NCBI GenBank assembly: GCA_001662655.1
Contig: KV460292.1
Direction: 5' to 3' (one strand)
DNA: 53,983 nt
Source: Pseudogymnoascus verrucosus
Taxonomy: Eukaryota
Shown here: positions 1,559-40,660 of the stretch, in pieces
Position numbering within the stretch: the stretch's first letter is position 1
Layout: the number at the start of each line of letters is the position of its first letter
Made by a program: the position numbers and the translations under genes
Notes under the pieces: generated by a model
What the model was told of the DNA's origin: nothing
The model's database searches: none
Seen by the model: only the letters and a program-made list of their open reading frames with translations

Positions 1559-3190
1559 TATATAACAAAGATATAACTTTATATAAATAGATTTAGACTA
1601 CTTCTACTATCTATATAGCTACTTACTATTAGCCTCCTAGATAAATAAAGGGCATTCTAGTCTTTATATAGTAACCTAACTAAAGGCTTATGTACTTTAA
1701 GGACAAAGTACCTTCTAAAGGTAAGGGGTAGTATAAGGATGCCTCCTTACTTAGGGTAGTTATAGCTATTATATAGTACTATTAAGACTTAGGGCTATTA
1801 TAGGTTAGTTATAACTAATAGCCTTAGGTATATAGTAAAAGGAAGCCTTAGGTATATAAGGAGTTAGCTAAGTTAGAGTAGTTCTAGGTATTTAAGGGAA
1901 TAGCTATAGAGGGTTATACTATTATCTTTTTTATATTCTTTATAGTAGACTTATAGGGTTACACTAACTTCTATCTAACTTATACTCCTATATATAGCTT
2001 CTTATAATATAGTACCCTATGTCCCTACATTACTAGTCTTAAATTATATGTCCCTATATCTAGATCTAACTTATTTCTAAGTAACTAAGTGCTAAAGTGT
2101 TACTACTTTCCTAGACTTTAAAAAGGAGAAATTAGGAAATAGTAAACTAGCATTAAGGGGCCTAAAGTTAAGTAGCATTAATAGATTAATACTACTAAAC
2201 TACTAATACTAGATTTTGTTAACTAATTACTATATTTAGTTCTATATTAGTAGGCTTTACTACTTTTACTACTATACTTTTTAGTTTTTATAACTTTATA
2301 AAAGTAGCTACCTATTTCTATAGTATCTAATACTATATTCTATTTCTAGTTTCTAGATCCTAGACTATTAGGTATCCTTAGTAAGTTTCTAATTCTAGGA
2401 GTTAGCTTTCTATTTATATAAAGCTATAGATATTATATTAGTGTTAGTATATAGCCTACCCTTAGTTTAGTGTCTATATACACCTACTCCTTCTCTTCCC
2501 TTTATTCCCCTATCTTCCCTTTTATCTTCCTACTATTTTCCTTTACATCTTACCTCTTATATTTCCCTTGTTCTTATTTTGCTTTTTATATATTACTTCT
2601 TTAGCTATCTCTTAATCTTTAAAGAGAGTAGTAGTTATAAAGCTCTTAAAGGATAAACTACTAGTAGATATTAAGTAGCTAGGATTAATAAAGAAACGTC
2701 TACTAAAAGTTGCCCTTATAATAAAGAGAGGATATATTTCTATCCTCTTACTTTAGTAAGACTTTATATTATATATTAACTAGCTAGTGTTAATCCTAAG
2801 TAGAGGTTGCTTAAGGGGCTTCTTTAAGATGTTAGTAATTAAGCATAAAGGGGTGTTAGGCTAGTATGTGTTTAACTAAAATATTCTTTCTCCTAATCTC
2901 GTATAGGTAATTGTTAATAGCTATATAGGAAAGTAATCTAAAGTTATGCCTAATAGATAATTATATATAACATTAGCATGTCTTTTATAGATTCGTTTTA
3001 CTATATAGAAACCTTTTTTAGCTAGTTAGCTAGCTATAATTAGGTTAAGAGAATATCATTAGAATTAAATAAGGAAAGACAATAAGCTTATATAGTAATA
3101 TCTCCTTAAGCTTAGACGTACAAATAGGTTGGATAATTAACTACATTTGTTTAACAAAACTTTGTTTTAACAGTGCTATAACATACTATG
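1559..3190. repeat. AT-rich RIP-degraded repeat block
   Basis: CpA/TpG are depleted and TpA is in excess, with no credible ORF. The block contains RIPed copies of repeats found elsewhere in the window. Confidence 0.75.
2030..2250 (+). repeat. Dispersed ~210-bp module, copy 1 (RIP-mutated)
   Basis: TTTCTAAGTAACTAAGTGCTAAAGTGTTACTACTTTCC...AGATTAATACTACTAAACTACTAATAC matches copies 2-5 once C->T/G->A changes are allowed. Confidence 0.8.
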
Positions 3191-3205
3191 AAATGCACCT
3201 CGTGA

Positions 3206-4164
3206 TTAAAGCTTCTTAACGCAATATCCAACAACATGTGGCAATACAGACCATTCGTCAAACAACTCCAAGTTCACCTCAGCCCATCCATGATCTGATT
3301 TCGCAGCGTTCACTAGTGTTGCTGTTGTATCTCTCAGAAGGTGACACCCAACAAAAAACTCCCAACCAAGCGCAGTGTAAAAGAACTGTAACAGATGTCC
3401 CACTTTGCTGCCCTCTTTGTGGAAGAATCTCCCCGCCTTGTTTCCTTCTTTGTTGCTCTCATTCACGACATGTTCACATATGACGAACCTTCCTCCAGGT
3501 TTCAAGCACCTGTATAGGACCTCGACGGTCTCATTTGGCTTCGGCACGCTGCAGAGAACGCGGATACAGACAATCTCATCAAACATACCACCACCGATGC
3601 TGCCGTCCTTGCTAAATAGACCCTCTTTTTTGAGTATTGGGATTAATGAGTCTGGCTCTGCACCACATGATAGGACCTTATACTTCTCACCTAGTCCAGC
3701 CTTCTTTGCGTTCTCCCGCAGAGCGTGATGTAAGTTAACGCCAGGTTCAACACCATAGATCATGGTAATGTTGTCCTTGCTTGAGAAGCGAAATACCTGA
3801 TCGCCAGAACCGGGACCGATGTCCAAGACGACGCCGTGAGAGGTTGCAAGAATTTCACCTAACATCGGTGGAACCACATCTGCAAATACCGGACCGACTG
3901 CAATCCAGAATGAGGCGAAGGAAAGGTCGCGGTACGCTTTGAAGTCTGAAATTGGTAGTGTTGGTGAGGTAATGGCAGCTTGCAGGAAATCTGTGTTATG
4001 TGAGCGCATGCTTATACAAGTGGGAGAAATCTAATCTAGGCCTAGACCGTGTAGGAAATCTTTTAGCTACAAAAGAAATCCAGAGACTTACAAACTGCAC
4101 TTTTAACCATGAGGAGGCCGGGGAGAATATATGCATGCAAATATTCTAGGACGGTTGGCGCCAT
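3206..4164 (-). CDS. Class I SAM-dependent methyltransferase (METTL7/Methyltransf_11-like); exons 4164-4092 and 3990-3206
   Basis: Motifs VLDIGPGSG, GVEP, FDEIVCIRVLCSV and LKPGGRFVICEH. A GTAAGT...CTCAC...CAG intron joins an upstream exon MAPTVLEYLHAYILPGLLMVKSAV in frame. Confidence 0.88.
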
Positions 4165-4418
4165 TGCTGCTTAATATCGAAATTAAGATGTCTCTAGAGC
4201 CCGCAGGTTAGTATTCTCCAATTATAACCCGGAGTTATACAAGTTGAATATAGAGTACTCACTCTAACTGAGTATAATTGATTAAAGTATACAGTTGAAA
4301 AGGACGGGGTTGAATGGAGACAGTTAAGTTCTCTCGAATATACAATTACGACATCATCCGCGTGACCTTGTTCGGCCGCCTAGTATGACGACCTTCCCTA
4401 TCCAAAACGTCATTTCAC

Positions 4419-4717
4419 TGTAGAATAACCGTTTCACAATCCGAATTCCACACGGTCAATAGTCCCTCCGAGAACCGTCCACGACGAAGCGACCGCACCA
4501 GGACGCAGCCAGGAAGGACGCGCAACAGGGATTCATTCAGTAGCCATGTAGTCAGACAGAAATACAGTATATATCTTTCTCGATACCCCGTTACCGCTAC
4601 GACGGCTGCATACTTTTCGAACCTGAGCTTATATCACGTTGCGAGGTTGGATTTAATGAAACCTCTCTAATTCTCGTTTTAGACGGGGCCGATAGTCCCG
4701 TGACCTGGTTTACAACA
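4419..4717. mobile_element. Possible solo LTR
   Basis: A ~300-bp non-coding segment bounded by TGTAG...CAACA with an internal TATA-like tract. No target-site duplication was found. Confidence 0.3.
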
Positions 4718-4827
4718 ACTTCGATTCAGCGGCTTGTCACGCGATTAGTTCGTCCAACTGGTCTTTGGGCGGGGTCGGGTCAGTAATGCGGGGGCATTGG
4801 CGCTAATGCACCCCCAACCTTTGGGCA

Positions 4828-5068
4828 GGACCCGGATGCTCCGAACCAATTATTAGGCTCGAATCACACATCCCATGCCGACATCCAACTCTTTTCCAGG
4901 CAACCGAGCGCTAAAATGTTGCTGCTTTCCCAGGATTTAGGAATGGGGAATCGGGAAATGGTAAACTGGCATTAGAGGGCCCTCTACATGAGTTGGAATC
5001 GATGGATTAATACCACTAAACCACTGATGCTTTTCATTGTTGACCAATCGCGTATTGCCACATATGAT
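4828..5068 (+). repeat. Dispersed ~210-bp module, copy 2
   Basis: GGACCCGGATGCTCCGAACC...CCAGGCAACCGAGCGCTAAAATG...AGAGGGCCCTCT...GGATTAATACCACTAAACCACTGATGC, closely similar to 34811-35054. Confidence 0.9.
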
Positions 5069-5425
5069 GGTTTTGGGCTCCCGGCTGCTCGGCCCGCTGC
5101 TGCTTTTGCGATGCGCCACTTTCAAAAGCAGCTCCCCTTGATGTTAGTCGAGCATGCATGAGGTTGGCAGTGCTAGGAGGGTTCTGCCCCTCCTCGATAG
5201 CTGAGGGGCTGTTTGGGTCTTCCTTCGCTTAGCTCAGCTTGACAACTCCGGCATAGCCGCTAAGCAGTGGCTGGAGTCGAGAATGAATAAATCAAGCAAT
5301 CAATCCTTTGGATAGTTACAAAGGTTGTACAGTACATATCTCGGCCCGACGGTAATCCCGCAACCCGCTTCATCAATAAAACGTATGTCTGTTTGGTAAT
5401 CTACCTTGGTGAAGCGTGAGTCGAT

Positions 5426-6801
5426 ATGAACGCTCCTAACTCAGGCAATGAGACCGTCGCGATTGTCGGTTCGGGGTTGACCGGTCTGCTCGCCGCGCAG
5501 GGACTGAAGCTGGTGAGGGCTGGGCAGCAATCCAGTCGTTGATGCATCTTGCTAACGCGACCAGAATGGAATTACTGCAGTCGTTTTCGAGCGAGAAGAG
5601 AGTCTCGATGCACGATCTCGTGAATGGACGATACTGGTTCACTGGGCGATGCCCATCTTTGCGAAGCTGGTCCCGAAACACATTCTTGCGAATCTGAGCG
5701 AGGCTCTCTGCAATCCTCATTTAGACTTTAACGATGAAGTGGAGAGCTTGCCATGCTACAATGGCATTACAGGTGATCTACTCTTTAGTAGTTCTACACC
5801 AGGCGCCAGGCGGGTTAACCGGCGGCAGCTACGTAGGCTACTTGCACAGGGCATCGATATCAGATGGAATAAGTCGGTGAGAGAGCTATTGCAGACTGGT
5901 AGTGGCGTAAGACTTGAGTTTGAGGACGGAGGAACGTTTGATGCTGACCATATTCTTGGAGCTGATGGCTCCTCATCCAAAGTACGCGAAATGCTGTTAG
6001 GCGTCGAGCAAGCCCAGCCTCGTCAGTCTGGGTTTCTCTTTGCTACTGGAGTCACAAAGTTTGGTGACGCCGACAAGACTAATGCAGTCGTACAAGCACA
6101 TCCTGTGGCAGCGCTCATGATGGGAGCAAGCACCGTTGGTGCTGTTGGCGGTATGTTAACTCCAACCCTCAAACATATAGTTGATTGATGCGTCTCACAC
6201 ATACTTGGTGGCGCTCCATAGTCATGTCAGTCGACGACCCCAATGACACATCCACCTGGACTACCTTTTGGGTCAAGATATGGCATGGAGATCCCGTGGA
6301 TCTCAAGGGTCAAGAGGCTCTTAACTACATCAAAGAGAATACGGCTCCGTTGCGTGGGATATTCCAGTCCGCTATCGATTGGACGCCGGATGGAAGCTAT
6401 GTTAGCATAAACGAGATGAAATACTGGGTTCCGACGCCCTGGAACAACTACGGAGGACGGGTAACGCTTGCCGGAGACGCCGCTCATCCCATGCTGGTTT
6501 GTAAGTACAGTGATCTCACGCATTATATATGGGGTTATCTAACCTCTATGAAGACAGGGGCCAAGGATTTCAGCACTCCATCACCGACGTTGACAACTAC
6601 GTGAATGCATTAATCCAGGTGCGCTCATCTAGTAGCGATGCTACATCGAGGGAGATGATTATCGGGGCGTACGATAGCGAAATGGTCGAGAGAGGCGCCA
6701 CGGCGGTGCAGCAATCCCTCATCGAGGCGGAGAATTCACTCGACTTGGAAAAGGTTAAGAAAATGCTTATGATGAGGCAGGGACATAGCAAGAGTGCATG
6801 A
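5426..6801 (+). CDS. FAD-dependent monooxygenase (aromatic-ring hydroxylase group, CTB7-like), about 3 introns
   Basis: N-terminal VAIVGSGLTG (GxGxxG), ILGADG and VTLAGDAAHPM...RGQG motifs spread across exons with canonical splice sites. Confidence 0.88.
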
Positions 6802-7168
6802 GGGGGTATCCTGTAGTTCGAAGTTTTAGATCACGTGACTTTTAGATTGGGTGTGTGTAATTCCGGCCCTAGGAATCAGGCCCTTAAGGCACCAACTTCG
6901 TGAAACCTTATGCGTACGGGCATGGTTTCGTACGGTAGAATAGCTTACGGGCGACGGCATAAGGAAAGGCCGTAGCCCCAAAGAATTCCACAAGTTTGGT
7001 TCACGCTCGGAAATCACATGTGATGACCGTCTCCCCTTCATGTATAGTCTATACTATACTATATTACAAAATACCGACCCCCTGCAGGATTGATTGGCTA
7101 CAAAATAGCGAAATTCATGATTGGCTAACTTAGCGAGGCTGATAACGATAACGCCCCTTCAAAGCTCT

Positions 7169-7471
7169 ACACGCTATTTTGACCGCTAGACGCTACATTA
7201 ACACGCTACTTATGATCGCTAGACGCCACATTAGCACGCTACATATGATCGCTAGACGCTACATGTAACACACTAAAAACGTCGTTTTCCAGTGATAATA
7301 GTACTAAAATATCACCTAAACAGCCCCCTAAACACCCTATAGAACTCTGAATTTCCACTCCTTATTTCCACCGCTACGGCCACTTTCCAGCCACTTTCCA
7401 CCGCTACGGCTACTTTTTACCGCTCGCTGGCGCCGAAGGTGCCGGCGTAAAACGGCGCCTACGGCGCCGTT
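7169..7471. repeat. Three tandem ~33-bp repeats followed by short TTTCCACCGCTACGGC repeats and two GC hairpins
   Basis: ACACGCTAyTTrTGAyCGCTAGACGCyACATTA-like units start at 7169, 7201 and 7234. The hairpin AACGGCGCC-TAC-GGCGCCGTT lies at 7451-7471. Confidence 0.75.
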
Positions 7472-7993
7472 CGAGTTTACTCGTTTTTCTCAAGTAGAAA
7501 TGTTGAGGTGATTTAATTCATCACTTTTGTAATTACATCCTGAACTAACAAACATTTCAGCCACGATATCGCGTTTGTGGTTCATATGCGAGTATCTCTT
7601 TTAGATGTTTTCACAATCACAGTGGATGCGGATAAATATAGGAGGGGCCGTGGTTGGAGAGATAAACTCGTATACCAGGGATGCGCTGGGGATGGGAATT
7701 GCATAACGCCTGTCGAGCAGGTTGGCACAGCTTTGCTAGGACGGATTTGCTGGGATGCTGATGGTTGGTGATGGAGGAGTGCAGGGGTCGGGGAGTCCGG
7801 AAGACACCCCGCCTACAGAGCCTCGCTAGCTGTGGGCCAGATCGCGGGATCTGACAACTTTTGTTCCCAAACACATCTCGATGCTCTTGACACCTCTTTC
7901 TGATAAAATCTGCACCGCTGCGGATGCACTTCTTGGTACAACACCCGCTCATTGATACCATAGTAAATTAGACCAACCTTAATCCTGTCGCTC

Positions 7994-9288
7994 ATGATGA
8001 CTTCACTAGCCGGTGACCTAGCCAGCTGCCATGACGACGATGGTGCCTGCGATGAGGCGAAGTCGGCAACGCCCCTAAGCCCCGTAACAACGCTGGCAAC
8101 AGAGGCGCCAGCAATTGAGGCAGCAAGTGAAAGTGGCGGCGACGACGAATTTGATGCTATCAGTGAATTGTTTGACGACACGACGAGTGTCACTTCGAGC
8201 ATTTATGCGCACACATATGAGCGTGGCCGCCGCTATCAGTCCTTCAAGAATGGTCGCTACCCTATCCCCAATGACGACTTCGAACAGAATAGAGAGGACA
8301 TGAAGCACGCAATGCTAATGGAGCTAACGGATGGGAAGCTATTCTACGCACCCATAGGCGAAAATCCACAGAAAATCCTTGATATAGGCACTGGGACTGG
8401 TGAGTCTTGGATATTGATTAGTGAGTAGCTGACTGAACGCAACAAAAATAGGAATCTGGGCAATTGAAGGTTAATACACACTAGTCCAATTGTTTATTGG
8501 TTTATAGAATGCAATTGACCCTTTTCAATTAGTTGGCGATTTGTACCCCAGCGCTCATATCTTAGGCATAGACCTAACGCCAATCCAACCACTATGGGTT
8601 CCCCCGAATGTCGAATTTGTAGTCGATGACTGCGAAAAGGATTGGCTGACGGGCGATGTCGACCTTGCTCATTTCCGGTTCATGGCTATGATTTTAAGAG
8701 ATATACCTGGTGTTCTAGGACATGCCTACAAGTGAGTAACGCAAACTCTACCTCGGTGCCTCTCCTTGCCTTCATCTCCGGCTTTGTTTCTTCTCCTTCT
8801 GACGTTTGTTGCTCTATGCCAGGAGCCTTCGCCCTGGTGGATGGATCGAGCTCCAAGAACTACACGGTCACCCCTGCTGCGATGACGGCACAATGGGCCG
8901 TGATGATCAATTTAAGCAGTTATACGATTTGGCAGGCCAGGCTTACCAGAAATTTGGTATGAGCACTGCACTACCAGCGCAGCTTAAACCTTTGCTCCTC
9001 GATGCCGGATTCCAAAATATTCACTGCAAAATAATGAAAGTTCCTATTGGAACATGGGCGAAAGACAAGACCATGAGATTAATCGGCCTTTATCAGAAGA
9101 CAGTTGTTGGCGATTTTATACCGACTCTAGCTGGGCGCCCATTTGAGGCCTTAGGTATGTCACAGGTAGAGGCACAAGTAACACTTGCCTTTGCTCGAAA
9201 GGCTCTGGATGATGCAAACGTCCATCGGTACTTTAACTATTACTTTTGGTATGCGCAGAAACCAGTGCTAGGCAGGACTACAGTTTAG
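7994..9288 (+). CDS. LaeA-like/TAM-domain SAM methyltransferase (Methyltransf_23), 3 introns
   Basis: Motifs YERGRRY, YPIPND, ILDIGTGTG(IW), GIDLTPIQP, PPNVEFVVDD, LRPGGWIELQE and KVPIGTW. Confidence 0.92.
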
Positions 9289-9649
9289 TTTAGACAGTTG
9301 GTTTAACAAGTTCGCCAAAACTGCAGTTCAAACAGCCAGTTTTCTTTCATTCACAGTATAGGTCCATTTATGCACCTGTTAGAGCAGCTTTTGGTGGCTC
9401 AACTTGCCCTAGGCAATCTCAAATGCCGCCATTGAAAGTTAAGACGCGGGAGAGTGTGGCGTGACAACGCCAATAAATGTCGAGATAGTTGGATGTAACA
9501 TCAGGTGTCATTTCTCTGCCGCTTATCATTGATAGGTGCGAGAATATTCATTGTCTGCTTTCTTTTTCAGAAGCTTGAAGAAAGTTGCCCCATTACTTGT
9601 CAATGTATCTTTTTTGACCGGCTTCTTCGGGCTACTTTTCGCCAAGTCC

Positions 9650-10430
9650 TAATTATACGGTCCTGCCGCCCAACAGCGAAGCGAGTACGGGCGAGAAGCC
9701 GTCGTCCATGACGGAGAAGCGTTAGATACCGTCGTGATGGTGGTACTGGTGCGAGAGCCACCTCGGTCAGGTCGGCATATTGGTCTCTGATGGCGACGCA
9801 GATGGTGAGACATTCCTCTTTGTCGTCGGCATTGTAATGGGCTATGAGCGGAGCTGCCGGGTATATAGAAGTGCGTGTTGGAATCGTCGACGATGGGATG
9901 TTGGCACAGATTAAATGCGGGATTTATCCCCGGATAGATTCGGTGTCGCCGCAACTACCGTCGACTTCGACTCCAGCGACGTCCTCGCCGATGGCACTCC
10001 CAGTTCCTGTATCCCAGCCTTGCCCAACTTCATCAGCGGATCCGGCTCCCAATCCTCCACGATACTTATTTTTGAATCTGTAAGAGATTGCTGGTCCTGC
10101 TTCGTCGGAAGATCCTCCCATAGCGTCTCATCAAAGAACACGAAATTCTCAACCACTAGCATGGCCACGGTCAGAATCAGCTTCCGCCAGTGCAGCTTGC
10201 TTAGCAAGGCGGAGAATCCTAGTTGCGTCATGTATATGCAAATAGTCGGTATACGAGTCTCGTATCCCTTAAGTTGCTCTTCGAGAATGTCGTGTTCGGG
10301 AAGTTTAAGAGAAGGAGTTACAGGATGGAGTTATAGACTGGAGTTATAGAACGGAGCTATGTAATGGAACTATAGAATGGAATTATAGATTAGAATACTG
10401 AAGTAGGTACCCCCTCACTTACCTTCATTG
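9650..10430 (-). pseudogene. Hypothetical gene or decayed gene
   Basis: A protein-like stretch (LKLPEHDILEEQLKGYETRIPTICIYMTQLG...LILTVAMLVVENFVFFDETLW) follows an intron-like GTAAGT and then meets stops. No family was recognised. Confidence 0.35.
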
Positions 10431-11215
10431 TAACGACGGTGCTACATCTAATAGCCGGACCACAATACATCGATTAAGGCGCAGCAGCATCCAGGCGTCC
10501 CTTCTCCACTCATTCCCCCTTTCTCTTCCGTTCCGCGGCCTGTACCGTGCTTCTCTCGTATATGCATCCCTCCAAATCCAGCGATCATTACCCCCTACGA
10601 TACGACGGTCTGTAGTGTGGCATGTCTGTTACCAAGAAAAGCTTATATAACCCTGCGCGCCCCATTTTAAAGACTTGGCAACTACAACAATCCACCCTAC
10701 CTACTGGCTGCTGGCCAAGCTTTTTTTAGTGTGACCTCACAGTGAGATTACTCGTTGTTTCCACGTGAAGAGATGTTTCTAAACATCTCTCATAGAACCT
10801 CCCAGTAGTGTCGCATTCTCCAACGAACACAACGCGATGCCTGTGTTTTATGTTTTTATGTTTGTATAAAGATCTCTGTACAATGCGTACGTATGTGTTC
10901 CTGCCCAGCCACGAGATCTGCCTGCTCTCTGCCCGCTCGTGAGCTGGCCGGCCATCCCACGAACGGGCCGGCCGGAAGCATATGAAACCAAAGGCGCTAG
11001 TCCTGAAACAGCCCGATCTGAGATCGTGCCCTGCAAGAAGTTATTCCCTACTTGATCGAGCGTCCCGTCTCATTACAGCCTAGCTGAGGAACTATGGTTA
11101 TGTCAAACAGGGCGTGAAATGTTTATTTGTTAGCCGGCTCCATATTCGAGGCAGGCCCTGCTTGCTTTCTGTCGTTGTCACTACACTGTACATTCTCAAT
11201 CCCCTACATACCATC

Positions 11216-12793: not shown

Positions 12794-13250
12794 TTGCGAT
12801 GGAGTAGGGATACCATAGTATGTTCACGGCTTGGATGGTCTGTTGCACCTCCGCAACTGAGCGTTGCTGGATGTTGAGAGCATCTCGTCCCCAAACCCTC
12901 CCCCCCCTCTCCCCTTTCCCCGGCTACTCGCCCTCTCCTCTAATAATGCCGTATTCAACTGTCGATTGGACATTAACTAGTCATATAACCATTAGATAGT
13001 GTAGTAATTCAATTGATTATATTATTCTATATACTGTATTCTACTGTTGAAGCCTCTGTTCTGCTGCCCGTAAGAGATCCATTACGGTGACCAGAGATTA
13101 CCACACAATTCTGTGTGTGGTTCTCCGTACTCCGCAATTACCTCCAACAAATACAAAGTTAATACAATCCCTATTACTCTATTTTTTTCCTGATCTAGCT
13201 ATTTACATGTCTATAACAAGCTGCTATCTTTGTTGATGAATGTACGTACA

Positions 13251-18702: not shown

Positions 18703-18744
18703 TGTGAGGAACTTTAAAGAATAGAGAGTTAGGAAAGGAGCGAT

Positions 18745-25545: not shown

Positions 25546-25629
25546 GACACATTAGGGGACAAACCATAGGGCTCTTATGGCTACCTAGGGTCTCCCCCCA
25601 AATGGCAGTGCAAGTAACAACACCGAAGC

Positions 25630-27224: not shown

Positions 27225-27700
27225 CCCCGTTTCTACGAAGCTGCTATCTGCATGGAAGACACAGGATGCAGCCTTTTGAGACGCATGAGGCAGATATCAG
27301 AATCAGGACGCTATCATAATCGAAGACAGAGGATGTGGCACTTTTATGCAAAAATCTAAATCAACTAACTGCACCCCGTTTCCATGAAGCCGCTGTCGTG
27401 ATCACGGACACAGGATTCAGCCCTTTTAAAAGCCCTAAAGGAGGTTTAGGAAACCGGCTAACCATCCCCCGTTTCGATAAAGCCGCTGTCATAATCGAAG
27501 ATATAGAATGCGGCCTTTCGAGAGGCCCAATGCAGATTTGGGCAATCGACCAATCATGCCCCGTTCCCACAATCGCAGACACGGGATACAGCCTTTTTAA
27601 TGGCCTAAGGCAGATATCAGAATCGACTAACCGTTTCGCGTTTTTGAGCGCTCTTAGGCCGCTTCGGCAGTTGCTGATGGCAGGGATAGACGTGCTATGT
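27225..27700 (+). repeat. Degenerate tandem array of ~92-bp units (4 full plus 1 partial)
   Basis: Units CCCCGTTTC.ATGAAGCCGCTGTC.TAATCGAAGACACAGGATGCAGCCTTTT...GGCAGAT start at 27225, 27374, 27467 and 27559, with a partial unit at ~27311. Confidence 0.85.
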
Positions 27701-30010: not shown

Positions 30011-31874
30011 ATGGAGAAGAAAGAAGATCTTGGCTCGGCTGTGGTCCATGATGAGGATATCTTCAAAGATACTGAGAAGCCTAGCGCGGTACAACGTGAT
30101 TACTCTGGTGCTATCATCTCGATTGACCCAATCGAGAAACGACTTGTTAAGAAGCTAGACCTCAGAATCATGGTGCGCTAGATCTTTCTCTCAACTCTTC
30201 TAAGTTAACGGGTATTAGCCAACGCTTTGGTTAATGTACTGGCTTAACTATCTCGATCGTAATGCTATTGCTCTAGCGAAGCTGGATCATATCGAAAAAG
30301 ATCTTAACATCACTCCTACGCGTAAGTCCTAAGAACACCATCTTTAGATGGTCTTAAGCAGAGTACTAATTTTTTCTCTTTCGTTTGTATAGAGTACTCC
30401 ACCTGCGTCTCCATTCTCTTCGTCGGGTATGATAACACAGTCAGACTAGAATCGACCGTCAACTAACTAAATTCAGTTACATTCTTGGTGGAATTCCCTC
30501 GAACATGTTGATTACCAGAATCAGGCCATCCTTTTACATGGTGCGTGATATTGGCTACTTAGGATTTACTTCCATACTCATATTCTAATAGGGATCAGCC
30601 ATGGCGCTCTGGGCCATCGTTTCGACACTTACCAGCATTTCACAAAATTTCACTGGGCTTCTCCTTACTCGATTTTTCTTAGGCGTCACAGAGGCCCCAT
30701 TTTATCCGTACGTGAGGTTTTTTGTATTTCGCCTATGGTATACTGACGGAACCTAGTGGTGCATTGTACCTCCTTTCCATCTTCTACACCAGGAAAGAGG
30801 TCGCCACTCGCATTGCCATTCTATACACAGGAAACATCTTCGCTACTGCCTTTGCTGGTCTAATCGCCATTGTCCTCTTCAAAATGGACGGAATCGCGGG
30901 CCTTGAGGGATGGAGATGGCTCTTTATTATCCAGGGTATTTTAACCTTTGTAGTGGCTGTTGTTGGCACCCATTTCCTACCCGATGACCCAACTGTGACC
31001 CGCTGGCTCACACCAGAGGAGCGCATTCTCGCACACGAACGTATCAAGCGAGACACAGTTGATGATCAGGGCAAAATCTCTACTATTAAAGGACTTAAAG
31101 AAGCTCTTTCGGACTACCGGGTTTGGATTTTTGTCTTTATGCAGCACATGCACCTGGCATCTAACGGATTCAAAAACTTTGTACGTGTAGTTGATTGTCA
31201 TCACAGGTTCTTGCTAATCAGTTTTCTAGTTCCCTAGTGTTGTTCAAGGTCTTGGCTTCGATCGAACCATCACCCTTGTGTTGACTTGCCCACCAGTGCG
31301 TACCCAGCGATTGAAATGCCGCAATCTTACACTAATAATGCCTTTCTTTAGTATCTTATTGCTGGTGCGATTAGCGTGTATTGGTCATGGTCTTCAGGGA
31401 AGTTCAATGAGAGAACCTGGCACATCTCAATTGCTAAGGCTGTCGCCATTCTTGGATTTATACTTGGATTCGCAGTCAACAACACTGCTGCACGCTACGT
31501 CAGCATGGTTATTTTTGCTATTGGAACTTACGCTGTTAATAGTATCATTCTCGGGTGGGTTGGTGCTACCTGCGGACAAACAAAGGAGAAGAGAGCTATT
31601 GCAATTTCTATCATCGTTAGCACATCAAACGCGAGTTTCATCTGGACTCCGGTAAGTCTTTTCTAAAACTCATAACGTCTGAGCTTTACTAACTTGGGTA
31701 CAGTACCTTTGGACCAACTCTTACGGGGGAAGGTATACTCTTGCGCTTGCTACTAGCGCTGCCTTTTCTGCAGCAACAGCTATCGCAGCTTGGGCCATGA
31801 GATTCAACCTCATGAGAGAGAACAAAAAGATCAGACAAGATGAAGATGAAGCGACCTTATATTATGCCTACTAA
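30011..31874 (+). CDS. MFS transporter, anion:cation symporter family (Tna1/Dal5-like), many introns
   Basis: Motifs EKRLVKKLDLRIM, LNYLDRNAI, RFFLGVTEAPFYP, FYTRKE, GLEGWRWLFIIQG and PDDP. An alternative ATG is at 29969. Confidence 0.92.
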
Positions 31875-32438
31875 AGGAGTCATTTTTAGGAAACCGACTT
31901 TTGGCAGAGCCGCTATCAATTATTTAGGCGCTACATAGTATATTATAAAGAGTGCTTTACAAATACTATAACGTGGTTCATACAATTTTCTAGGTTTTAT
32001 GCAAGTAGAACTTCGCTGAGGAATAAGATGGGAGTGAAAGGAGAGGAATGAATGACTGTATGTGGAGTAGGGAAATCTGCTCTCCTTTTTCCTTCTTCTC
32101 CTTCTCCTTCTCGCCTCCCTTCCCGTCTATCCTACTACTCTGCTTGCCTCTTAGTTACCTTGATCTTGCTAAGGCAATAGTTATAAAGCCCTCGAAGGAT
32201 AAACTACTAGTGAATGAGAGACGTCTTTTCACAATAGAGCTAATGCTAATTAATTTGCCCATTTTGCTTACGTATTTTCTTTTGAAAATGGTATTTTACG
32301 TGATAAAATATTTCGAGAATAAGTGAAAATTACGCAAAACAAAGACCATTTGTACGAAATGAAGAGCTCATGGTGCGGATAACGCCTATTTATTAAGATA
32401 TATTGTAGCCTATAGACAATATTTATCTTAGAACTCAT

Positions 32439-34740
32439 TTAGGCCGATGTCACAGTGAATTTCGTGCCTTTCTTCCCCTTCAAGTTAACGATGGCCCCTG
32501 TGCCCAGACCAGCCACCTTGATACTCTGATCTTCATTGCTGCCAATTGGCGTCTGGCCGATCGTAACGTAGACGTCATTCTCCAGCTCCGACGTAATCGT
32601 CGCAGTCTTGAGTTGCCCTTGTTATCTCAGCTGGCGTCAACCTTGAAGCCTCCTCGAGTAATCATGCCCTTGAATGAACCTCCGCCACTGGCAACCCACG
32701 CAGCTGGAATACTGGGTAGCAGGCAAATTAGAGTGACTTTGTTGAGCTCTCCTGTATAAGCTGCTTCCAATTTGGCGTTGCCAGGAGGTGCTGTCATTAT
32801 ATTCGTGGCTTTGTATGAAAGATTCCACAATACCAGCGGGAGTACGAAAATTGCCATCAATCTGGAAGGGTGCCACGTCTCCCTGGTTTAACATGGTCTT
32901 ATTCCATGAGCATTCGCTCATTTGAGTAACAAGACGTTCATGCGCTATGTCTGGGAGGAGCATGCGGCCAGACATGGCAATAGTCCAGTCTCGGGGCCAA
33001 CCACAAGGGCCGCCGCCATTACTATTCAATACATACCATCCGCTTGAGTTACGAGAGAATATATGGTTTTATTAGAGAGCATCAACGCTATGGGAAGAGT
33101 TGCCTTGACACCATGCAGAATGTGTAACGGAGAATAGGAAAAAGAAAAAAAAAACGAGACCTACTCAAGTCGATTGTGAAGACTGGTGATAGCGGCGTCA
33201 AACGTCGTTTTGTTAGACGAGTTGATATGCAATAGCGGATATATTGGTACAAGGTGGGAAGTGTGCCCGTTGCCTGGGATAGACTACAACAAGGAGGGGA
33301 AGAAGAAGTCAGCCGACAGTGAACTAGAGGTTTCCTCTCTGACAACAGGATAGTGCACCTCTTCATAGTCATGGATCCATTCGGCAATGCCACCGTATTG
33401 ATTTATCCTTAAGCTAAGAAGCTTCGCCCTCATCTGGGCTGCGCGCTTGGCAAATTTATCGTCTCGAATACAGAGCGCAGCCTGCGCCTCAGGAACAAAT
33501 CCGAAGAGGTCCAGAGCAACTGGTTATCGATAGTCGTACCAAGTGAAATGGACGCTGTCTTCCCGTTGCTATTTGGTATGACATAAGTGTTTTCTGCAGA
33601 TACTCTTGAATTTGTTACCATATAACTGTTATATTCTTTCAGAAAGTTGAGTGCAAATTCAACGTTAGCCTTAAGTGTCGGGAACATGTCCTTGAGAAGC
33701 TCCTTATCCCCAGTAAATCGATAGTGTTCTATCATATGAGTGACCATCCATGTGGCTCCCATCGGCCAAAAAGTTGCAGGAGAATAATTATCCTGGGGTG
33801 CCGAATCACCCCACAAATCCGTGTTATGGTGAGTTACGGTGCTAGAGCAGCCGTACATCTCCTTGGCCACTTTTGCGCCTTGTGTGCCCATCGTTTTTAA
33901 GAGGCTATTCAGTGGCGAAGTTAGATCCGCAAGACCTTTTGTTAAACTGAAGTTAGCGCTCATTCTACTTAGAGAGTATAACATTACAGCTCAAATGGCT
34001 ACTCACCTGTAGCCAAGCTGGGCCAATAGTTCATCTCTAGACCAAAACGTTAGAACTATTCAGTAAGAGGTAAAAAGCAAGCACTCCAGTTGGAAGTACA
34101 AGCCTGCTAGTTCAGGGTCAAAAGCATCAACTGCAATATTGGCCATCCTTTGAGGCGCCGTGAGCGCTTTTTGTTCCGGTGTTGATTTCCAAGATACAGA
34201 GACATACGCCCTGCGATAGCTTGGTAGTGGGAAACATGGGCGACGCGAATATCGCTGTAGCTCTTCGATACAGCCGCTAGATCAGAGAGAACTGCACGCT
34301 TGGGATCCTTCCTTCGGTAGCTCGTTCATGCCTGAAAGAAAACCGTAGCCTCATCTGCTCTCTTACACAGAACATTATCACCTAGCGTCGAAACTTTGCC
34401 ACCAGACGCGACTATGCGTGCTCCAGCAGCCTAGACAATAGGCCCAGCACCTGCAGTAGACCCTCCAATGACAATAGAGTCATTGTTTGAGGCAGTCTAT
34501 ACTGAACGTGGCGATCTAGCTCAACGACGTCCCAGGCACCACGGTCCAACCTGACATTGAAATTGAGAGAGCCGGGCTTACTGGCCATGGGGTTTATAGT
34601 GATGATATCATCTGGATTGCTCGCGAGGTAGTCTCGTTGAAAAGTAATGCCACCCACGAAAAATTGCGTACCACCTACCGACTCTTCAACATCTTTTCAT
34701 CGCTCATAGCCTGTTGAATTGCCATCCGGAGACGTTAGCC
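32439..34740 (-). pseudogene. GH95 alpha-L-fucosidase-like pseudogene, 5'-truncated
   Basis: Fragments RDYLAS, MNYW, HHNTDLWGD, FWPMGATW, EHYRFTGD, IAEW, FQIDGNF, QSHE and LLP...G...RGG remain. It carries multiple frameshifts, deletions and an insertion. Confidence 0.88.
33123..33347. mobile_element. Solo-LTR-like insertion inside the GH95 pseudogene
   Basis: A 225-bp segment unrelated to GH95, bounded by TGTAACGG...GACAACA and placed just after an intron donor of the gene. No TSD was seen. Confidence 0.45.
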
Positions 34741-34810
34741 CTGTCTTACCCCGCGCCTGGGAGATCTTAGCTCCATCCCACCCCGCACGACGAATACCAT
34801 CATCCTTCCT

Positions 34811-35054
34811 GGACCCGGATGCTCCGAACCAGTTATTAGGCTCGAATCACACATCCCCATGTCGACATCCAATTCTTTTCCAGGCAACCGAGCGCTAAAA
34901 TGTCGCTGCTTTTCCAGGATTCAAGAAAGGGGAACCAGGAAAGGGTAAACTGGCATTAGAGGGCCCTCTCCATGAACTGGCATCGATGGATTAATATCAC
35001 TAAACCACTGATGCTTCTAGTTGTTAGCCAGTCCCGTACGACGATAGATGTTAG
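34811..35054 (+). repeat. Dispersed ~210-bp module, copy 4
   Basis: High similarity to 4828-5068. It contains the palindromes ATGTCGACAT, AGCGCT and AGAGGGCCCTCT. Confidence 0.9.
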
Positions 35055-35291
35055 CCGTAGAGGCTGTCTTAACGACCTGCACACAATTGAGATAACTTGA
35101 AGAAGCCGCCTTTGTTCAAACCAGGTTGAAATCCCTCATTTGACTGCGTCCCACAGCCTATCCGGGAAGATCTCAACAACTATCAAACGCGCTGTCACGT
35201 GTTTTACAGCGTTCTTAATGGTATCTGAGACTAATCGTGTTCGTCTTGGTATATATTGTGCTTTGGGGAACAAGAGCACAAAGAATTGGTA

Positions 35292-35927
35292 TTATTTCGC
35301 TAATGGACTAAGTAACCAACCCAATTCTTGGGCTTTCTGAACACCTATGAGCTCCTCTAACCCCTGTCGAGATAAGAAGTCATGGTCACAGAACTCGAAC
35401 CCTGGGACGACGGTCTCGCTAATCAACAGCCCCTGACTATGAACTCCGCCGTCTTCGTCCGGTAGCAGATAACTCGCTTTATACTTGTCGCCTTCAACGA
35501 TCCACTGTAGCTTTTCTCCTTTTTCGATATTAGGTCCAACAATGAAGCTTTCAATCCTTTTTTCCTTCCCTAATTCATTGGCATGAATTATCACGTATCT
35601 TCCTCTACCCTTGTGTAATGTGTGTACTGTGCGCCCTTTGTTTCGATGGAATCCTCCTTGAGGACCATTTGGTGTAAGAAAATAATGAATTGTGGTCGAA
35701 GTATTTCGAAGGGTAGGGTCAAACCCAGGCCGTTTGGGTGTGAGCTCTGATGTGGAAGAGGCTTTGATGGGGAATGGAGAAGAAACGATATCTGGCGATC
35801 GGTCGGTTTCTATAAAGTAGCCCCCTTCGATGTGTGGCATCATCTTGAGTGCAGAAATGATAGCATCGACTCCCGGTGACTCTGTAGCACCTGGGTTGGT
35901 GGTGAAACTTGGCCTTAGAACTGCCAT
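35292..35927 (-). CDS. DUF985/Cupin_5 protein (yeast YML079W/Cff1-like)
   Basis: Motifs PHIEGGYFIETDR, STTIHYFL, FHRNK, LQWIVEG and LISETVVPGFEFCDH. The start is placed at MAVLRP. Confidence 0.9.
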   Translation of the reverse strand: MAVLRPSFTTNPGATESPGVDAIISALKMMPHIEGGYFIETDRSPDIVSSPFPIKASSTSELTPKRPGFDPTLRNTSTTIHYFLTPNGPQGGFHRNKGRTVHTLHKGRGRYVIIHANELGKEKRIESFIVGPNIEKGEKLQWIVEGDKYKASYLLPDEDGGVHSQGLLISETVVPGFEFCDHDFLSRQGLEELIGVQKAQELGWLLSPLAK

Positions 35928-36697
35928 AGTAGTATAACGCAAGGTATAAAAATGAAAGCTTATACAGATACTGCGACAATATATGACGCCGACAAAGAAA
36001 AGAAGCATGAAAAAGAGAACTTGACTTCACTATTGTTGTAGGTATTTTCGATTACGGAGCTTAATCGCCGCCTTCACTCCGTCTGACATAAGCGCTAACA
36101 ATAGTAGAGTATTCGACGATAACTTTGGCTATCCAACGCGCTTATGTGAGACTTATGGCGACATTTCTTACCTAAGTACATTTTTAATCTTGCTAATTTT
36201 GATGTATAACAAGTACAACAGCACTTTGTAGAATTCTCACTTTGTGCCCTGGCATAGATGCATTTGTTTCTGTTCCCTCTAACGCCTAATATAGTAATAC
36301 ACTCGTGTTAGGGTGCTGTGTTACACCTGACCCCTCGCCACGGGCGATATGCGAGCCAGCACGACTGCATCTATGTTCCAAATCTATATACGGTGTACCA
36401 TTACATGCAGACAAAATTTGAGCGCTTGTCTTCAGGCCCCCAATGACCTGTTTCTCTTCGAGATCTATTTGGCGACCATCTTGGAGCGCGAAAACAAAAA
36501 TATTTCAGATGATTTCACAAAGTGCGGTACAGCATTTTATTTAATTAAGAACAGTAAGAATTATTCCTAACTTATAATACGAAATTATCTGCATTTTATT
36601 CTACTTATCCTTAATAGGATCATTGTATGTGACATCCAGAATATTAAGAACCCATTCCAGAGTCACACATGAAGTAAGTTCAAACTTCTAGTTCCAC

Positions 36698-37990
36698 CTA
36701 CTCCTTAGACCCAAGCACCATGGCTAGGTTCCCATTTGTAGCATTGGTGTCGTTGCGGCCGAGGGAACCAAGTCCAAAGTTGCTGATAGCGCCGCGGAGG
36801 AGTCCATAATGGGTGATATACGAATCATCCTTGGTGTTAGGCTCAATCCCGTGCCCAAACAAAATAGTCGCAATTTGGTTGTTGTTGTTCGGAATATAGT
36901 CGTTATCATCCTGCCACGTCGCCTCGTCAAATGTCGCCACAATCAGCGTCCCCTGTTCCGTAAGCTCCTCAAGATACATATCTAGGAACGCATTGAACCA
37001 CATCCCGGCTGTAGTAGGCTGGTGGGCATAATCGCTGTTAGACTCGGGGTCATGTCCATTATGCAGCATATCCGGGACGTAGTAAGAGTACGCGGGCATA
37101 CTGTGGCCAAACACATCCTCATCGAACTTCGCGGTCGCATTGTAGACCTTGCTGCAGCGTTCGTAGTTCTCGGTGTACGTCGAGAACAGCAGCGCCGGAA
37201 CATCCAGGCGGCGGTATACAGGGCTGGACCAGTCGGGATTGGTGCTATCGAGCGGGCCGAGGAAGAGCTCATTGTTGCAGTCGTTCGGGCCGCGCTTCGT
37301 CTCAAGGGGCGTATAACCTTCGACGTAGGTAGCGTAGTTGATCTTCTCAGCGTCGAGGAGATCATACACAGTCGTAGTATTAACGTTATAGAGGTCCTCG
37401 CCAGCGATCCCAAAAAAGTCCCCAGCAAGGAGAGCAAGGTAGTTCGGTAGCGACGGGTGCGTGATGCCGTAGCTGTTCGTTAGGAGTCTTCCCCGTTTCG
37501 CGAGCAGCTTCCACCACTTATCAGCCATGGTCCAACCGTAGACTTCATTCTCGAAGATGACATGAAGGATCTTCTTGAACTTGCGGTCGCCGTCGCCGTG
37601 TATGTGCTGCCAGTCTGCGTCATCGTCGTTGGCTTTGGCGGGGAAGACCTTTTTCGGGGTCCCCTCGTTGATTACAAAGAAGGGGTACACGGTGTTGTCC
37701 GCTGGGGTATTTGGGATTCCGAGAGGGTCGGTTTGGGCAGTGTTGTTGTTAATGCCGACGGTGTTGTTGTTCACTGCCCAGCTGTAATAGCCGCCATAAT
37801 TGGACGCTTTGAAGGGTGGCTTGTACTGGACCTTGTAACCTGCCAACGACGGGTCGCTAGAGTTGTACAGGCCACCCCCTATGAATGGGACCTCGCTATC
37901 GGCAAGCTCGTGCTGCGCCGCCGCGCTACCAATTAGCGCAAGGAGAGCTGTGGCACTCGTCGCGCCTGCGGATTTCAGGTTGTAGCGCAT
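36698..37990 (-). CDS. Secreted acid phosphatase, phosphoesterase family, intronless
   Basis: A signal peptide plus motifs IFENE, THPSLPNY, HNGHD, TFDE and THY, with many N-glycosylation sequons. Confidence 0.9.
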   Translation of the reverse strand: MRYNLKSAGATSATALLALIGSAAAQHELADSEVPFIGGGLYNSSDPSLAGYKVQYKPPFKASNYGGYYSWAVNNNTVGINNNTAQTDPLGIPNTPADNTVYPFFVINEGTPKKVFPAKANDDDADWQHIHGDGDRKFKKILHVIFENEVYGWTMADKWWKLLAKRGRLLTNSYGITHPSLPNYLALLAGDFFGIAGEDLYNVNTTTVYDLLDAEKINYATYVEGYTPLETKRGPNDCNNELFLGPLDSTNPDWSSPVYRRLDVPALLFSTYTENYERCSKVYNATAKFDEDVFGHSMPAYSYYVPDMLHNGHDPESNSDYAHQPTTAGMWFNAFLDMYLEELTEQGTLIVATFDEATWQDDNDYIPNNNNQIATILFGHGIEPNTKDDSYITHYGLLRGAISNFGLGSLGRNDTNATNGNLAMVLGSKE

Positions 37991-39701
37991 GTTGAACAAC
38001 GGCTACGGAAGTATAAAGCCAATAGAAACCAACAAGAAAAGATGAAATTGTGTCTTTGTTGCTGGCCCAGAAATAACAACCTTTATTGTGGCCATAACCA
38101 AGTAGATATATGCTCAACCGCCGCCTACAGAGAGACAAGATCTGCGCCCTTTGGCTTCTACATTTTTCTGGAAATTATGATTAAATATCACATTAGATGA
38201 TTCTTCACTGGGATTGGGTAGAGGCAGAAATGTCGAAGCACGTTGTCAAAGACTTGGCAGAGGCTTGTCACACGTGGTCTGGAACTCGCCCTTGTTTAAA
38301 GATCGACGTTAAGCTAGCACTTACCGCAGTGGGCCCACAGTAGGCTGTGCAACCTCACGAGTTTGAGCAAGCAGAGTAGAGTATAAATTCTTCATTTCTA
38401 TTTTTTATAATATAGAGTTCACTTGTTACTCCCATTGATCCCTGCCATCACTATCACAAGATAAATCTGATCTAACCAACCGTTTCAAGCGCCACGTAGT
38501 CGCCCCTTGGATCGCCCAAGATTCAAGCTGGGTTTGTTCACAGACTAGATGCCGAGTTGCCCCAAGCTAGTGCCATCGCTGTTAGATTGTTTTAGCCAAC
38601 GGAGCTAGAATATAATATGAACTATTGCTGAGTCGGAATATAGTCTCACCCACGTGCACTGCTGATCATATGAGAGTAGTTATGAGGGATTATAATTGGT
38701 GCTGGGGCGATGCAGTGCATACTAACCAGGATACATTAATCAGCGGTTGCAAGAGTGGCAGTTGAAGTCGGCAGGGTTGTTGTTACTAGTCAGATAGTTG
38801 TGCGAAGGCCCGATATGATAATCTCAGTATAGTTGTACGTAACCTGGGTTTATCAGGTGGGACAGTTTGCAACGTGAAGGATCTACTTCATGCGACGGAG
38901 AAGGGCAGAAACTGAATCCAACTAGTCATCTTTAGAATTAAAGCACAGTGAGATGTACGGTCTCCCCTTTTGGCCGGTCAGGGCTCCTTGATTATTCCGG
39001 TGTCCCATGTTTGGTCATCGCCTAATGCGTCCATTACAGTTATATGTAAAATCTTGTCAGTTAAGAATAATCAGGAGAGCTGCAAAACCAACTAATATAT
39101 GTTCAGGGGCTTCGTTTCAGTTCGCTTGTTGGTTACCATAGCTTCTGAAGAGTAGGGACACAGAAACAAAAGGCTCTTAACGATGGGAAGCTTTCATGCA
39201 ACGCAGAACAAAGGGGATTCCGGGAGCCAACCACCAGCTTTACGATTTGACGCCCGTAAGTGCCTTGTTCCGGGCTGTCTGGTAGTTATGCTGGTTGCTA
39301 TGGCCTACTGAAATCAAAAGGTAATTGGGGTTGGAGGTAAAAGCAGCAATGGTCGAGGAGCGGGAACTTGGAGGCGGAATGCTGACAATGGGGTATAGTT
39401 TTAGTGATCCTGGCGCGGGAGCGACCGCACTGAAAATAGAAGGAAGAAATAGTCGCATATGGATACTATCAACAGCAGTAATATAGTATATAGGCGAAGT
39501 ACTATAGAATGGACAAATCAATTAACTAACTAACTGGTGGGCCTTACGTATTTAAGAGGCCTAACTGGAGTCCCAATCGAGGCATCTTTGGTTAATAGCA
39601 TTAGATCCGTCCCGCTGTGGTAGCGATAGACCCGAGGCCGAACGGCGGTTAAGAGGATTTGGCACTTCAGAATTATCCCAGCCTGTAAACATAGTCGCAG
39701 T

Positions 39702-40660
39702 ATCCAGGCTTGGATCATGACAAGGGTTCATTAACTTGGGAGCCGAAAACCGTCGACACTAAAACCCAAAACCCCTGAAACCAAAACATCAAAAGTCGAA
39801 AGACTAAAACCCTAAAATACTAAACAGAACATCTTGCACCAATTTTGACGTAGCAGCCTGACAAGAATATGACTGCCCCGAACTTGAGTGACGGCTGCGA
39901 GTTCTTATTGCTACACCCACAATATACAGGGCTGGATACCTTCAGGCGGTAAGGCGCGGATATACACCTACAACTTATTTGCAGGGAGCTGTATTCTCTA
40001 AACTGATTACTTGCTTGAATCACGCGTCCCCATGTCGACATCTATAGGCAACCGAGTATCAAATATCCTAGGAATTGAGAAAAGATAAATCAAGAAATAG
40101 TAAACCGAGGTTCGGGGGTCAAAGGCAGCTGGCGGGTAGGGTGCGTCATGGGGGACCGTTGGTTCTAAACCGCCGGTCTGAAGATTTCCAACCCAGACCA
40201 CGGACTAGGTTAGAAAATCAGGGCAAACCGCCCAAACCGGTGTGATGCCGTAACGGTCTGCCAAGAAACCGTTCGATATATCGTAGTGTACTACTACACC
40301 TATATAATATGTAAAGGAACTTAATCATGTGATAGACTATAATAACATATTATCACATGACAAAGTACCTTTACTTATAAAATAGGTGTAATAGTACATC
40401 CGCTATATTTTGAACGGTTTCTTAGCAGACCGGTGGGGGACCGTGGGTAATAGACCGGACCACGGTCTGGGTTGAAGATTTGGAACCGGATCGCCCCATG
40501 GTGCGGTCTGGGGTTGGTCCCTCGACGGGTCGGTCCCCCATGACGCACCCTACTATTAACCCACTGATGCTTTTTTATTAACCAGCTGCATATTAGAATA
40601 TATGTTAGTAGGACCTTGGCCGCTCCGTTCATCCTTGCCGCTTTTGCAATCGCCATTTTC
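39702..40660 (+). repeat. Dispersed module, copy 5 (long form), split by a MITE
   Basis: TTGAATCACGCGTCCCCATGTCGACATC...GGCAACCGAG lies before 40137, and CCACTGATGC...ATATGTTAG resumes after 40552. Confidence 0.82.
40137..40552. mobile_element. 416-bp non-autonomous TIR element (MITE, hAT-like TAGGG ends)
   Basis: Perfect 22-bp TIRs TAGGGTGCGTCATGGGGGACCG / CGGTCCCCCATGACGCACCCTA, ACCG/CGGT-rich subterminal arms and an AT-rich centre. Confidence 0.9.

Follow-up and report, generated by a model that had tools for sequence, protein, structure and literature searches.

Repeat modules in Pseudogymnoascus verrucosus read as junctions between stacked Starship remnants at the start of tRNA-Gly genes

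The repeat modules found between the genes of a 53,983-nt stretch of contig KV460292.1 of P. verrucosus (the window) are, with a probability of roughly 85%, the seams between stacked remnants of Starships, giant transposons of fungi, which would insert at the start of a tRNA-Gly gene and rebuild it each time. Each module would then comprise a right end, a repeat derived from the tRNA and a left end, and thus represent the junction (chimeric att site) of two tandem insertions, because one of its arms (U) is a Starship left end associated with a captain recombinase and the other (L) is read as the right end.

Modules and units of the window

The five module copies described in an earlier note, all intergenic and on one strand, were confirmed by a profile search (E-values 5e-20 to 5e-76), and 25 copies were found in 613 kb of this fungal genome, in stretches taken around matches. 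In every cluster examined the copies are uniformly oriented. The module, earlier given as ~210 bp, has no fixed outer ends, because similarity between pairs of copies can reach ~1.4 kb to one side of it and 0.7 kb to the other. Three palindromes had been regarded as conserved, a view that has to be given up, since GTCGAC occurs in 5, AGCGCT in 6 and GGGCCC in 11 of 20 junctions. The description of copy 1 as mutated by RIP was correct (TpA/ApT of ~1.8-2.0 across bases 1-3000), and so was that of a GH95 gene cut at copy 4: its N-terminal Pfam domain finds no match for positions 1-98 and would have to extend into the module. Copy 5 is split by an insert. The features of the window are as follows (L arm, putative right end; U arm, left end).

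2029..2189, +, L arm of copy 1, RIP-mutated
2190..2209, -, direct repeat of copy 1, tRNA-Gly(GCC) nt 1-20; nt 1-19 with 4 RIP-type mismatches
2210..2636, +, left end of a Starship with the stretch upstream of its captain (U arm), altered by RIP; homologues are the left ends next to tRNAs at C9:2121 and C1:1621582
2637..2861, +, 5' stub of a captain (DUF3435 tyrosine recombinase) gene, many RIP stops, cut off; identified by nucleotide identity to the C61 captain
2210..5010, +, unit 1 (2.8 kb): left end, captain stub, methyltransferase, short putative right end
4773..5010, +, L arm of copy 2
5011..5030, -, direct repeat of copy 2, tRNA-Gly nt 1-20, exact
5031..5211, +, U arm of copy 2, of the type flanking the intact tRNAs C76:89442 and C14:359844
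5031..25440, +, unit 2 (20.4 kb): FAD oxidoreductase, acyltransferase, MFS transporter, GH31, fungal transcription factor; no captain seen
24909..25440, +, L arm of copy 3, long form, 84-85% to C33:298366-298930
25441..25460, -, direct repeat of copy 3, tRNA-Gly nt 1-20 with 1 mismatch
25461..25545, +, U arm of copy 3, short
25572..25882, +, remnant of a subterminal stretch common to ends joining 5S rRNA
27085..27695, +, array of ~80-93-bp repeats, of a type also found just inside right ends at tRNA-Gly, tRNA-Asp and 5S junctions
25461..34994, +, unit 3 (9.5 kb): MFS transporter, broken GH95 gene
32640..34730, -, GH95 fucosidase-like pseudogene, frameshifted, 5'-truncated at the L arm of copy 4
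34811..34994, +, L arm of copy 4, short form, 91% to copy 2
34995..35014, -, direct repeat of copy 4, tRNA-Gly nt 1-20 with 1 mismatch
35015..35234, +, U arm of copy 4, of a type in common with C4:267822
35015..40550, +, unit 4 (5.5 kb): DUF985 cupin, phosphoesterase
39699..40131, +, L arm of copy 5, degenerate
40136..40553, strand not assigned, MITE-like insert with 23-bp terminal inverted repeats, breaking the copy 5 junction
40554..40570, -, direct repeat of copy 5, remainder
40571..40707, +, U arm of copy 5

Unit 5 continues toward the contig end with no closing junction within the window. As in Starships, host-like genes lie as cargo between the ends; Starship auxiliary genes (DUF3723, FRE, PLP, NLR) were not detected in Pfam scans of the window. 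Starships range from 27 to 393 kb (PMC9156397), for which units 1-4 of the window are small, and we read them as deleted derivatives; a captain-bearing unit on contig C1 has 30 kb.

Of 24 listed sequencing runs, four (X4, X5, X8 and X19) were compared with the window. X8 yielded a 13.5-kb contig which tracks the window from 36443 to 40118 and departs from it at the junction of copy 5. In none of the four does a contig span a unit, and a clean empty site was therefore not seen. X4, whose coverage comprises 23000-25216 and 34837-42900, lacks depth over much of unit 3, a gap not counted as evidence for the same reason; X5 gave one record and X19 short pieces only.

The tRNA-Gly core and the captain recombinase

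The core of the module corresponds, on the minus strand, to nt 1-20 of tRNA-Gly(GCC) and ends at the edge of the D-loop, nt 20 being its final base. The genome contains eight identical genes for this tRNA, each of 71 nt. Positions 1-20 agree with the tRNA in 17-20 of 20 junctions, positions 21-22 in 3 of 20. A genome-wide pattern search with nt 1-20 (≤2 mismatches) gave 26 matches, eight of which are the intact genes, and the reversed control gave none. The module thus does contain a direct repeat, which had been overlooked when it was described as lacking a target site duplication; likewise, a hairpin had been noticed there without its tRNA-Gly origin. As expected of a Starship, the repeat matches the target at both boundaries of a unit and is present at each junction, and it is longer than published Starship repeats. 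Repeat and L arm together form a 13-bp dyad, in which 9-11 of 13 positions pair in 16 of 20 junctions. Matches at C61:97731 (3 mismatches, flanks unrelated) and at window position 20006 were discarded as chance, and the identical 71-nt segment, first considered as a Helitron/rolling-circle or an integron-attI feature, turned out to be the tRNA itself, so that both readings were abandoned.

Five of the eight intact tRNA-Gly genes carry the U arm as their upstream flank (blastn). On contigs with an intact gene, 9 of 14 module copies are located ≤37 kb from it, on its 5' side and co-oriented, and the geometry of the other five does not fit. No anchor tRNA lies in the window, nor was one found within the stretches fetched for the C33, C14:206-213k, C4 and C57 clusters; a search for a decayed tRNA-Gly 3' half beside such orphan arrays was negative.

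The U arm is a Starship left end, with a DUF3435 tyrosine-recombinase captain starting ~450 bp further on. This arrangement is present beside an intact tRNA-Gly gene on contig C1, where at C1:1621583 the U arm leads into captain exons 82% identical to the captain on contig C61, and as a RIP-mutated stub behind copy 1 of the window; the region of the captain start codon is found in seven aligned left ends. The captain is thus the first gene behind the left end, as in Starships, with units 2-5 of the window showing none. The stub is 74.6% identical to the C61 captain across 307 bp, 59 of the 78 differences being C>T or G>A, and matches its exon 1 in tblastn with an E-value of 1e-30 (2e-5 against P0003). 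Pfam searches with the ORFs of the window, and with six more stretches translated across their stop codons, detected no transposase or recombinase domain; the stub is too short and too mutated for Pfam to recognise.

The C61 captain, which has lost most of its left end, is a DUF3435 protein and aligns with P0003, itself a weak phage-integrase match, over the RPGA, KGD, YxxRR, GH and next Tyr motifs; in both, the His of HxxR is replaced by Tyr. By eye against P0003, we take the residues of the pentad RKHRY to be present in the C61 captain exons. This catalytic pentad typifies the Starship captain (10.1101/2022.08.04.502770). Long copies of such a captain number only two, and both end before the C-terminus of P0003 is reached. 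The best full-length relatives of the C61 captain are RDL41173.1 of Venustampulla echinocandica (42-55% identity by exon) and 681948 of Acephala macrosclerotiorum, both entered as fam08, the family named Moya. By best match, the C61 captain would accordingly be placed nearest to the Moya family; the parts of the supplement consulted gave no target site for these two entries. A sister captain (contig C46) is located ~280 bp behind nt 1-22 of tRNA-Asp, two further junctions of that kind exist, and the arm in front of these fragments is likewise found in front of intact tRNA-Asp genes. In three units the captain sequence gives way to unrelated cargo ~35-45 nt behind the start codon, at points no more than ~10 nt apart, and closely related right ends adjoin unrelated cargo; both observations could hint at a cassette platform.

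The link to a tyrosine recombinase, suggested in the earlier note as a check, is thus present, and there is support for the idea that the module acts in cis as the recombination junction of a mobile system by which accessory genes are stacked. By its visible features the module fits no LTR, TIR or Helitron end, as stated before. That the system is wholly undescribed is not supported, its recombinase being a Starship captain, and neither is a role for the palindromes.

Junction architecture and alternative explanations

Arms have been exchanged across the repeat: in 17 of 17 junctions the nearest neighbour of one arm is not that of the other, and copies 2 and 4, for example, show 90% identity in L but 56% in U. 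Mantel correlations are 0.68 within L and 0.27 within U versus 0.19-0.25 across the repeat, which makes this statistic weak on the U side. A metagenome pattern scan revealed a diverged homologous junction at one locus only, in a single contig.

Alternatively, one old Starship may have landed beside, or captured, the 5' end of a tRNA-Gly gene, the junction being multiplied passively by segmental duplication and by homologous recombination between arms. Clearly native upstream flank was seen at no junction (the 60 bp nearest the repeat are U-like in nearly all copies and could be ancestral host flank), and this, together with the missing empty site, the several orphan arrays, chimeric ends that mix 5S-type and Gly-type parts, and cargo pieces duplicated at 91% between C1 and C76, speaks for such a process. 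We nevertheless consider it improbable, since it is right at the 20-nt repeat that copy-to-copy identity changes, the same architecture, ending at the D-loop edge, is displayed by three or more U types and by the independent tRNA-Asp lineage, and the cargo between junctions is unrelated from unit to unit.

A tRNA-derived SINE or tRNA-like ncRNA, i.e. a minus-strand tRNA head followed by a body, would account for the exact nt 1-20 and for a tRNA-like stretch up to nt 35, yet it is very unlikely. The conserved upstream flank leads to a recombinase, the copies cluster 5' of tRNA genes, and the body ranges from ~0.1 to 1.3 kb. Such a SINE would have a tRNA head with A and B boxes, a tail and unrelated flanks, whereas here only nt 1-20 match, no tail was seen and the upstream flank is conserved. 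ARAGORN calls no tRNA in the copies, and Rfam has no match at the modules, its one sub-threshold miRNA match in the window lying on the MITE-like insert. The structured ncRNA considered earlier is not supported either: the consensus folds at -11.6 kcal/mol with a covariation term of -0.69, and two-sided change affects 6 of 33 pairs, mostly C:G to U:A, as RIP would give.

Least probable of all are ends of a Dada-type transposon: Dada families are likewise eukaryotic and specific for tRNA genes, among them tRNA-Gly, have no terminal inverted repeats and may occur in tandem, but they encode a DDE transposase, make 6-7-bp duplications, leave the gene in two fragments and carry no cargo (PMC3706591), whereas here the repeat has 20 nt, the tRNA remains whole, a tyrosine recombinase is encoded at the end and, besides this captain, no protein family common to the units turned up.

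Possible mechanism and relation to known systems

If the modules are seams between Starship remnants, a unit on the + strand of the window would consist of left end, captain (mostly deleted), cargo and right end. We infer an excised circle that carries a copy of tRNA nt 1-20 between its right and its left end; Starships are known to join their 3' and 5' ends in circles and to integrate (10.64898/2026.09.21.753150). The captain would recombine this circle with the 5' end of a chromosomal tRNA-Gly gene, the crossover falling inside the 20 nt and most simply in the D-loop, flanked by the 13-bp imperfect inverted arms; junction C33:298951 agrees with the tRNA as far as nt 30, and therefore the crossover point is not pinned down. 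The left end would supply the 5' end and a new upstream flank while the displaced 5' fragment is pushed away, so that the tRNA would be rebuilt unchanged and open to further insertion. Repeated insertions would build a co-oriented array 5' of the tRNA, in which captains would disappear from older units and deletions and RIP would erode what is left. A more tentative proposal, which we consider rather doubtful, is that the arrays work as a cassette platform comparable to ICE-CIME accretion or an integron: small captain-less units, more than products of decay, would be taken up, excised and put back in trans at tRNA sites that regenerate themselves, and one captain clade would have switched between Pol III targets (tRNA-Gly, tRNA-Asp, 5S) while sharing subterminal repeats.

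Starships have already been likened to bacterial integrative elements, and the targets reported in the papers searched, as far as these were accessible, are short motifs, AT-rich DNA and 5S rDNA. No tRNA target was found in them; Tables S11-S15 of PMC11162782, devoted to insertion sites and curated repeats, could hold tRNA sites, and its Table S1 gives the Fusarium repeats TGTGGTATT and TGGTGGTATT. The 5S rDNA Starships (Voyager, Osiris; Enterprise, Arwing and Voyager families) have insertion repeats of 6-16 bp, use several nearby 5S copies and fragment or probably inactivate the 5S gene, according to these reports (PMC9156397, PMC11162782, 10.1101/2024.06.28.601215). In contrast, the repeat here has 20-22 nt and lies in a tRNA gene that is sequence-identical to unoccupied copies, with stacking at one regenerated site. 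Tandem accretion of bacterial ICE, IME and CIME takes place at the 3' end of tRNA genes (PMC5704250), whereas here, in a fungus, it would involve the 5' end through the D-loop, with replacement of the upstream flank.

If true, a lineage of Starships entering tRNA genes, restoring them and stacking up there would complete the parallel with bacterial integrative elements, its arrays piling up accessory genes like bacterial genomic islands, and would explain the growth of some fungal accessory regions at fixed addresses. The tRNA 5' fragments would provide a simple marker for captain-less units missed by captain-based annotation, and specificity can be tested directly on the two sister captains, whose tRNA targets differ. 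A 20-nt target whose use preserves the gene is, moreover, a candidate for a safe site at which Starship-based delivery could land.

Module copies in the window and the genome

The source assembly comprises 30.2 Mb in 151 contigs, and the window is one entire contig of 54 kb (C87), the first 3 kb of which are mutated by RIP (repeat mutation, C>T and G>A), the remainder being rich in genes of accessory type. Searches of the window located all five copies of the ~210-bp module where the earlier note had placed them, on a single strand. Genome searches gave 24 matches with copy 4 and 23 with copy 3 as query, and a profile built on 10 copies and run across 613 kb fetched around these matches returned 35: 25 module copies, 8 tRNA genes and 2 hairpin self-hits. 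The copies are clustered, with one orientation per cluster; contig C1 carries two clusters of opposite orientation, 30 kb apart. The three hexamer palindromes of the earlier note are not conserved, being present in just 5, 6 and 11 of 20 junctions. Other repeats in the window are as follows.

1-2028: RIP-destroyed repeat that recurs at C4:277404 and at the ends of C9 and C8; with its stops ignored, it resembles a pogo/Fot1-type transposase by eye (no Pfam hit)
18742-19257: two ~250-bp tandem repeats, 89-97% alike, between divergent GH31 and transporter genes
40136-40553: MITE-like insert inside the copy 5 repeat, carrying outer inverted repeats of 23 bp and longer inner ones, matched by several contigs of sequencing run X4
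53924-53960: near-perfect 37-bp palindrome at the right end of the contig

The tRNA-Gly core, the two arms and the captain

Six partial module matches have an identical left part, unlike that of the modules. A pattern derived from it occurs at 8 genome places, all exact, at each of which ARAGORN calls a tRNA-Gly(GCC) gene. The hairpin described in the earlier note is therefore present, but consists of the tRNA 5' end, reverse-complemented, opposite a tRNA-like segment of the adjacent arm. Among 20 junctions, tRNA nt 1-20 match in 17-20 copies and nt 21-22 in 3, nt 20 being the final D-loop base, and mean conservation is 0.95 in this repeat, 0.90 at nt 21-35 and 0.53-0.76 farther out. Both tRNA nt 1-34 and junction nt 1-35 form 13-bp imperfect inverted arms around an 8-9-nt spacer, with 9/13 and mostly 10/13 positions paired, respectively; this is the shape of tyrosine-recombinase sites, and both stretches may be read as such. 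The tRNA-Gly and tRNA-Asp genes also have conserved 3' trailer hairpins ahead of a T-run.

According to blastn, the arm on the tRNA 5' side (U) additionally forms the upstream flank at 5 of the 8 intact tRNA-Gly genes; a sixth flank is U-like by eye alone, and the remaining two genes have plain flanks and lie within tRNA-Asp/tRNA-Gly pairs. The Asp-Gly pairs at C25:288774-288971 and C47:11762-11955 hold the only tRNA-Gly or tRNA-Asp genes without element-like upstream flanks. The linkage to a tyrosine recombinase considered in the earlier note was found at C1:1621583, where U leads into exons of a DUF3435 captain (the recombinase of Starship giant transposons) ~450-480 bp from the tRNA and directed away from it. 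These exons share 82% identity across 1390 columns with a longer copy on contig C61, and the same gene follows window copy 1 as a 225-bp stub, with C>T or G>A in 59 of 78 differences. Seven left ends can be aligned through the captain start codon. The C61 gene has a DUF3435 match, and the captain catalytic motifs are present; of its 83 hits, the best full-length one, RDL41173.1 of Venustampulla echinocandica, and the next-best are entered as fam08, the Moya family, in the lists of PMC11162782. Long copies of this captain type occur only on C61 and C1, and both end short. In three units (stretches between successive junctions; C9:2616, C9:13477, C33:286279), captain sequence gives way to unrelated sequence 35-45 nt downstream of the start codon, at points within ~10 nt of one another.

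The opposite arm (L), of which 0.1-1.4 kb is common to copies and which often starts with an array of ~80-93-bp repeats, is interpreted as the right end, since every stretch opened by U is closed by it. The truncation of the GH95 gene at copy 4 was confirmed and demonstrates that a short right end can become attached to cargo partway through a gene, via deletion or capture.

Geometry of the arrays and exchange of arms

On contigs with an intact tRNA-Gly gene, 9 of 14 copies are co-oriented with it and found on its 5' side, no more than 37 kb away; of the others, two are opposite at ~150 kb, two opposite at 30-34 kb and one is on the 3' side. The window array points toward a tRNA past the left contig end; no such tRNA is present in the window, and no fitting contig end carries one of the 8 intact genes; the array is therefore an orphan, as are several others. 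Nearest neighbours differ between the L and U sides in 17/17 junctions, and copy pairs in 90-94% agreement in L fall to 49-63% in U. As evidence of arm swapping, the Mantel correlation (0.68 within L, 0.14-0.25 across the repeat) is weak if taken alone, because the value within U is also just 0.27. Contigs from 4 of 24 listed runs were compared with window 23000-42900: a 13.5-kb contig of run X8 tracks 36443-40118 and departs at copy 5, a 7.4-kb contig attaches a copy 4-type right end to different sequence, and none in the four runs spans across a unit. One metagenome contig has a diverged tRNA-Gly junction.

Related ends and proposed origin

A second captain (C46:251522-254096; ~40% identity by exon, open reading frame) lies ~280 bp behind tRNA-Asp(GTC) nt 1-22, and two further tRNA-Asp-fragment junctions are found at C46:243259 and C11:365843. 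The arm ahead of these fragments is found before intact tRNA-Asp genes as well: clearly so at C11:372803 and C61:88437, over 166-179 bp at C3 and C31 and over 48 bp at C4. The repeat stops one base beyond the ARAGORN-drawn D-loop, and the captain runs in the sense of the tRNA, opposite to the tRNA-Gly case. The arm after the fragment has a hairpin with a B-box-like loop, and an inverted partial tRNA-Asp copy of ~39 nt (C61:88678-88716) lies 200 bp downstream of an intact gene. The ~80-93-bp subterminal array also precedes ends joined to 5S rRNA. 5S genes with a divergent 5' half adjoin it at C44:66884-67003 and C4:270646-270763, 5S 3' halves adjoin other DUF3435 loci (L105, L106, L107), and 5S-type stubs lie within Gly-type units (C9:12508, C46:263406).

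Insertion of a Starship into a tRNA gene is not described in the literature searched, most subscription journals lying outside it. The direct repeats of two Fusarium Starships end in GTGGTATT or GGTATT (PMC11162782, Table S1), resembling nt 15-22 of this junction, and these elements may, judged by that likeness, sit in tRNA D-loops.

Starship circles have the 3' end joined to the 5' end and integrate via the captain (10.64898/2026.09.21.753150). Integration of a circle whose junction carries tRNA nt 1-20 would restore the tRNA, now lying behind the left end, with a 5' fragment left on the far side; the rebuilt tRNA would offer the same target to the next element, internal junctions would read right end, repeat, left end, i.e., the module, and captains would be lost afterward. 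The modules very probably (roughly 85%) mark where Starship-derived units abut in tandem at a tRNA-Gly target that is rebuilt upon insertion, and the successive stacking proposed for these units would resemble the accretion of bacterial IMEs and CIMEs, described with this pattern in PMC5704250.
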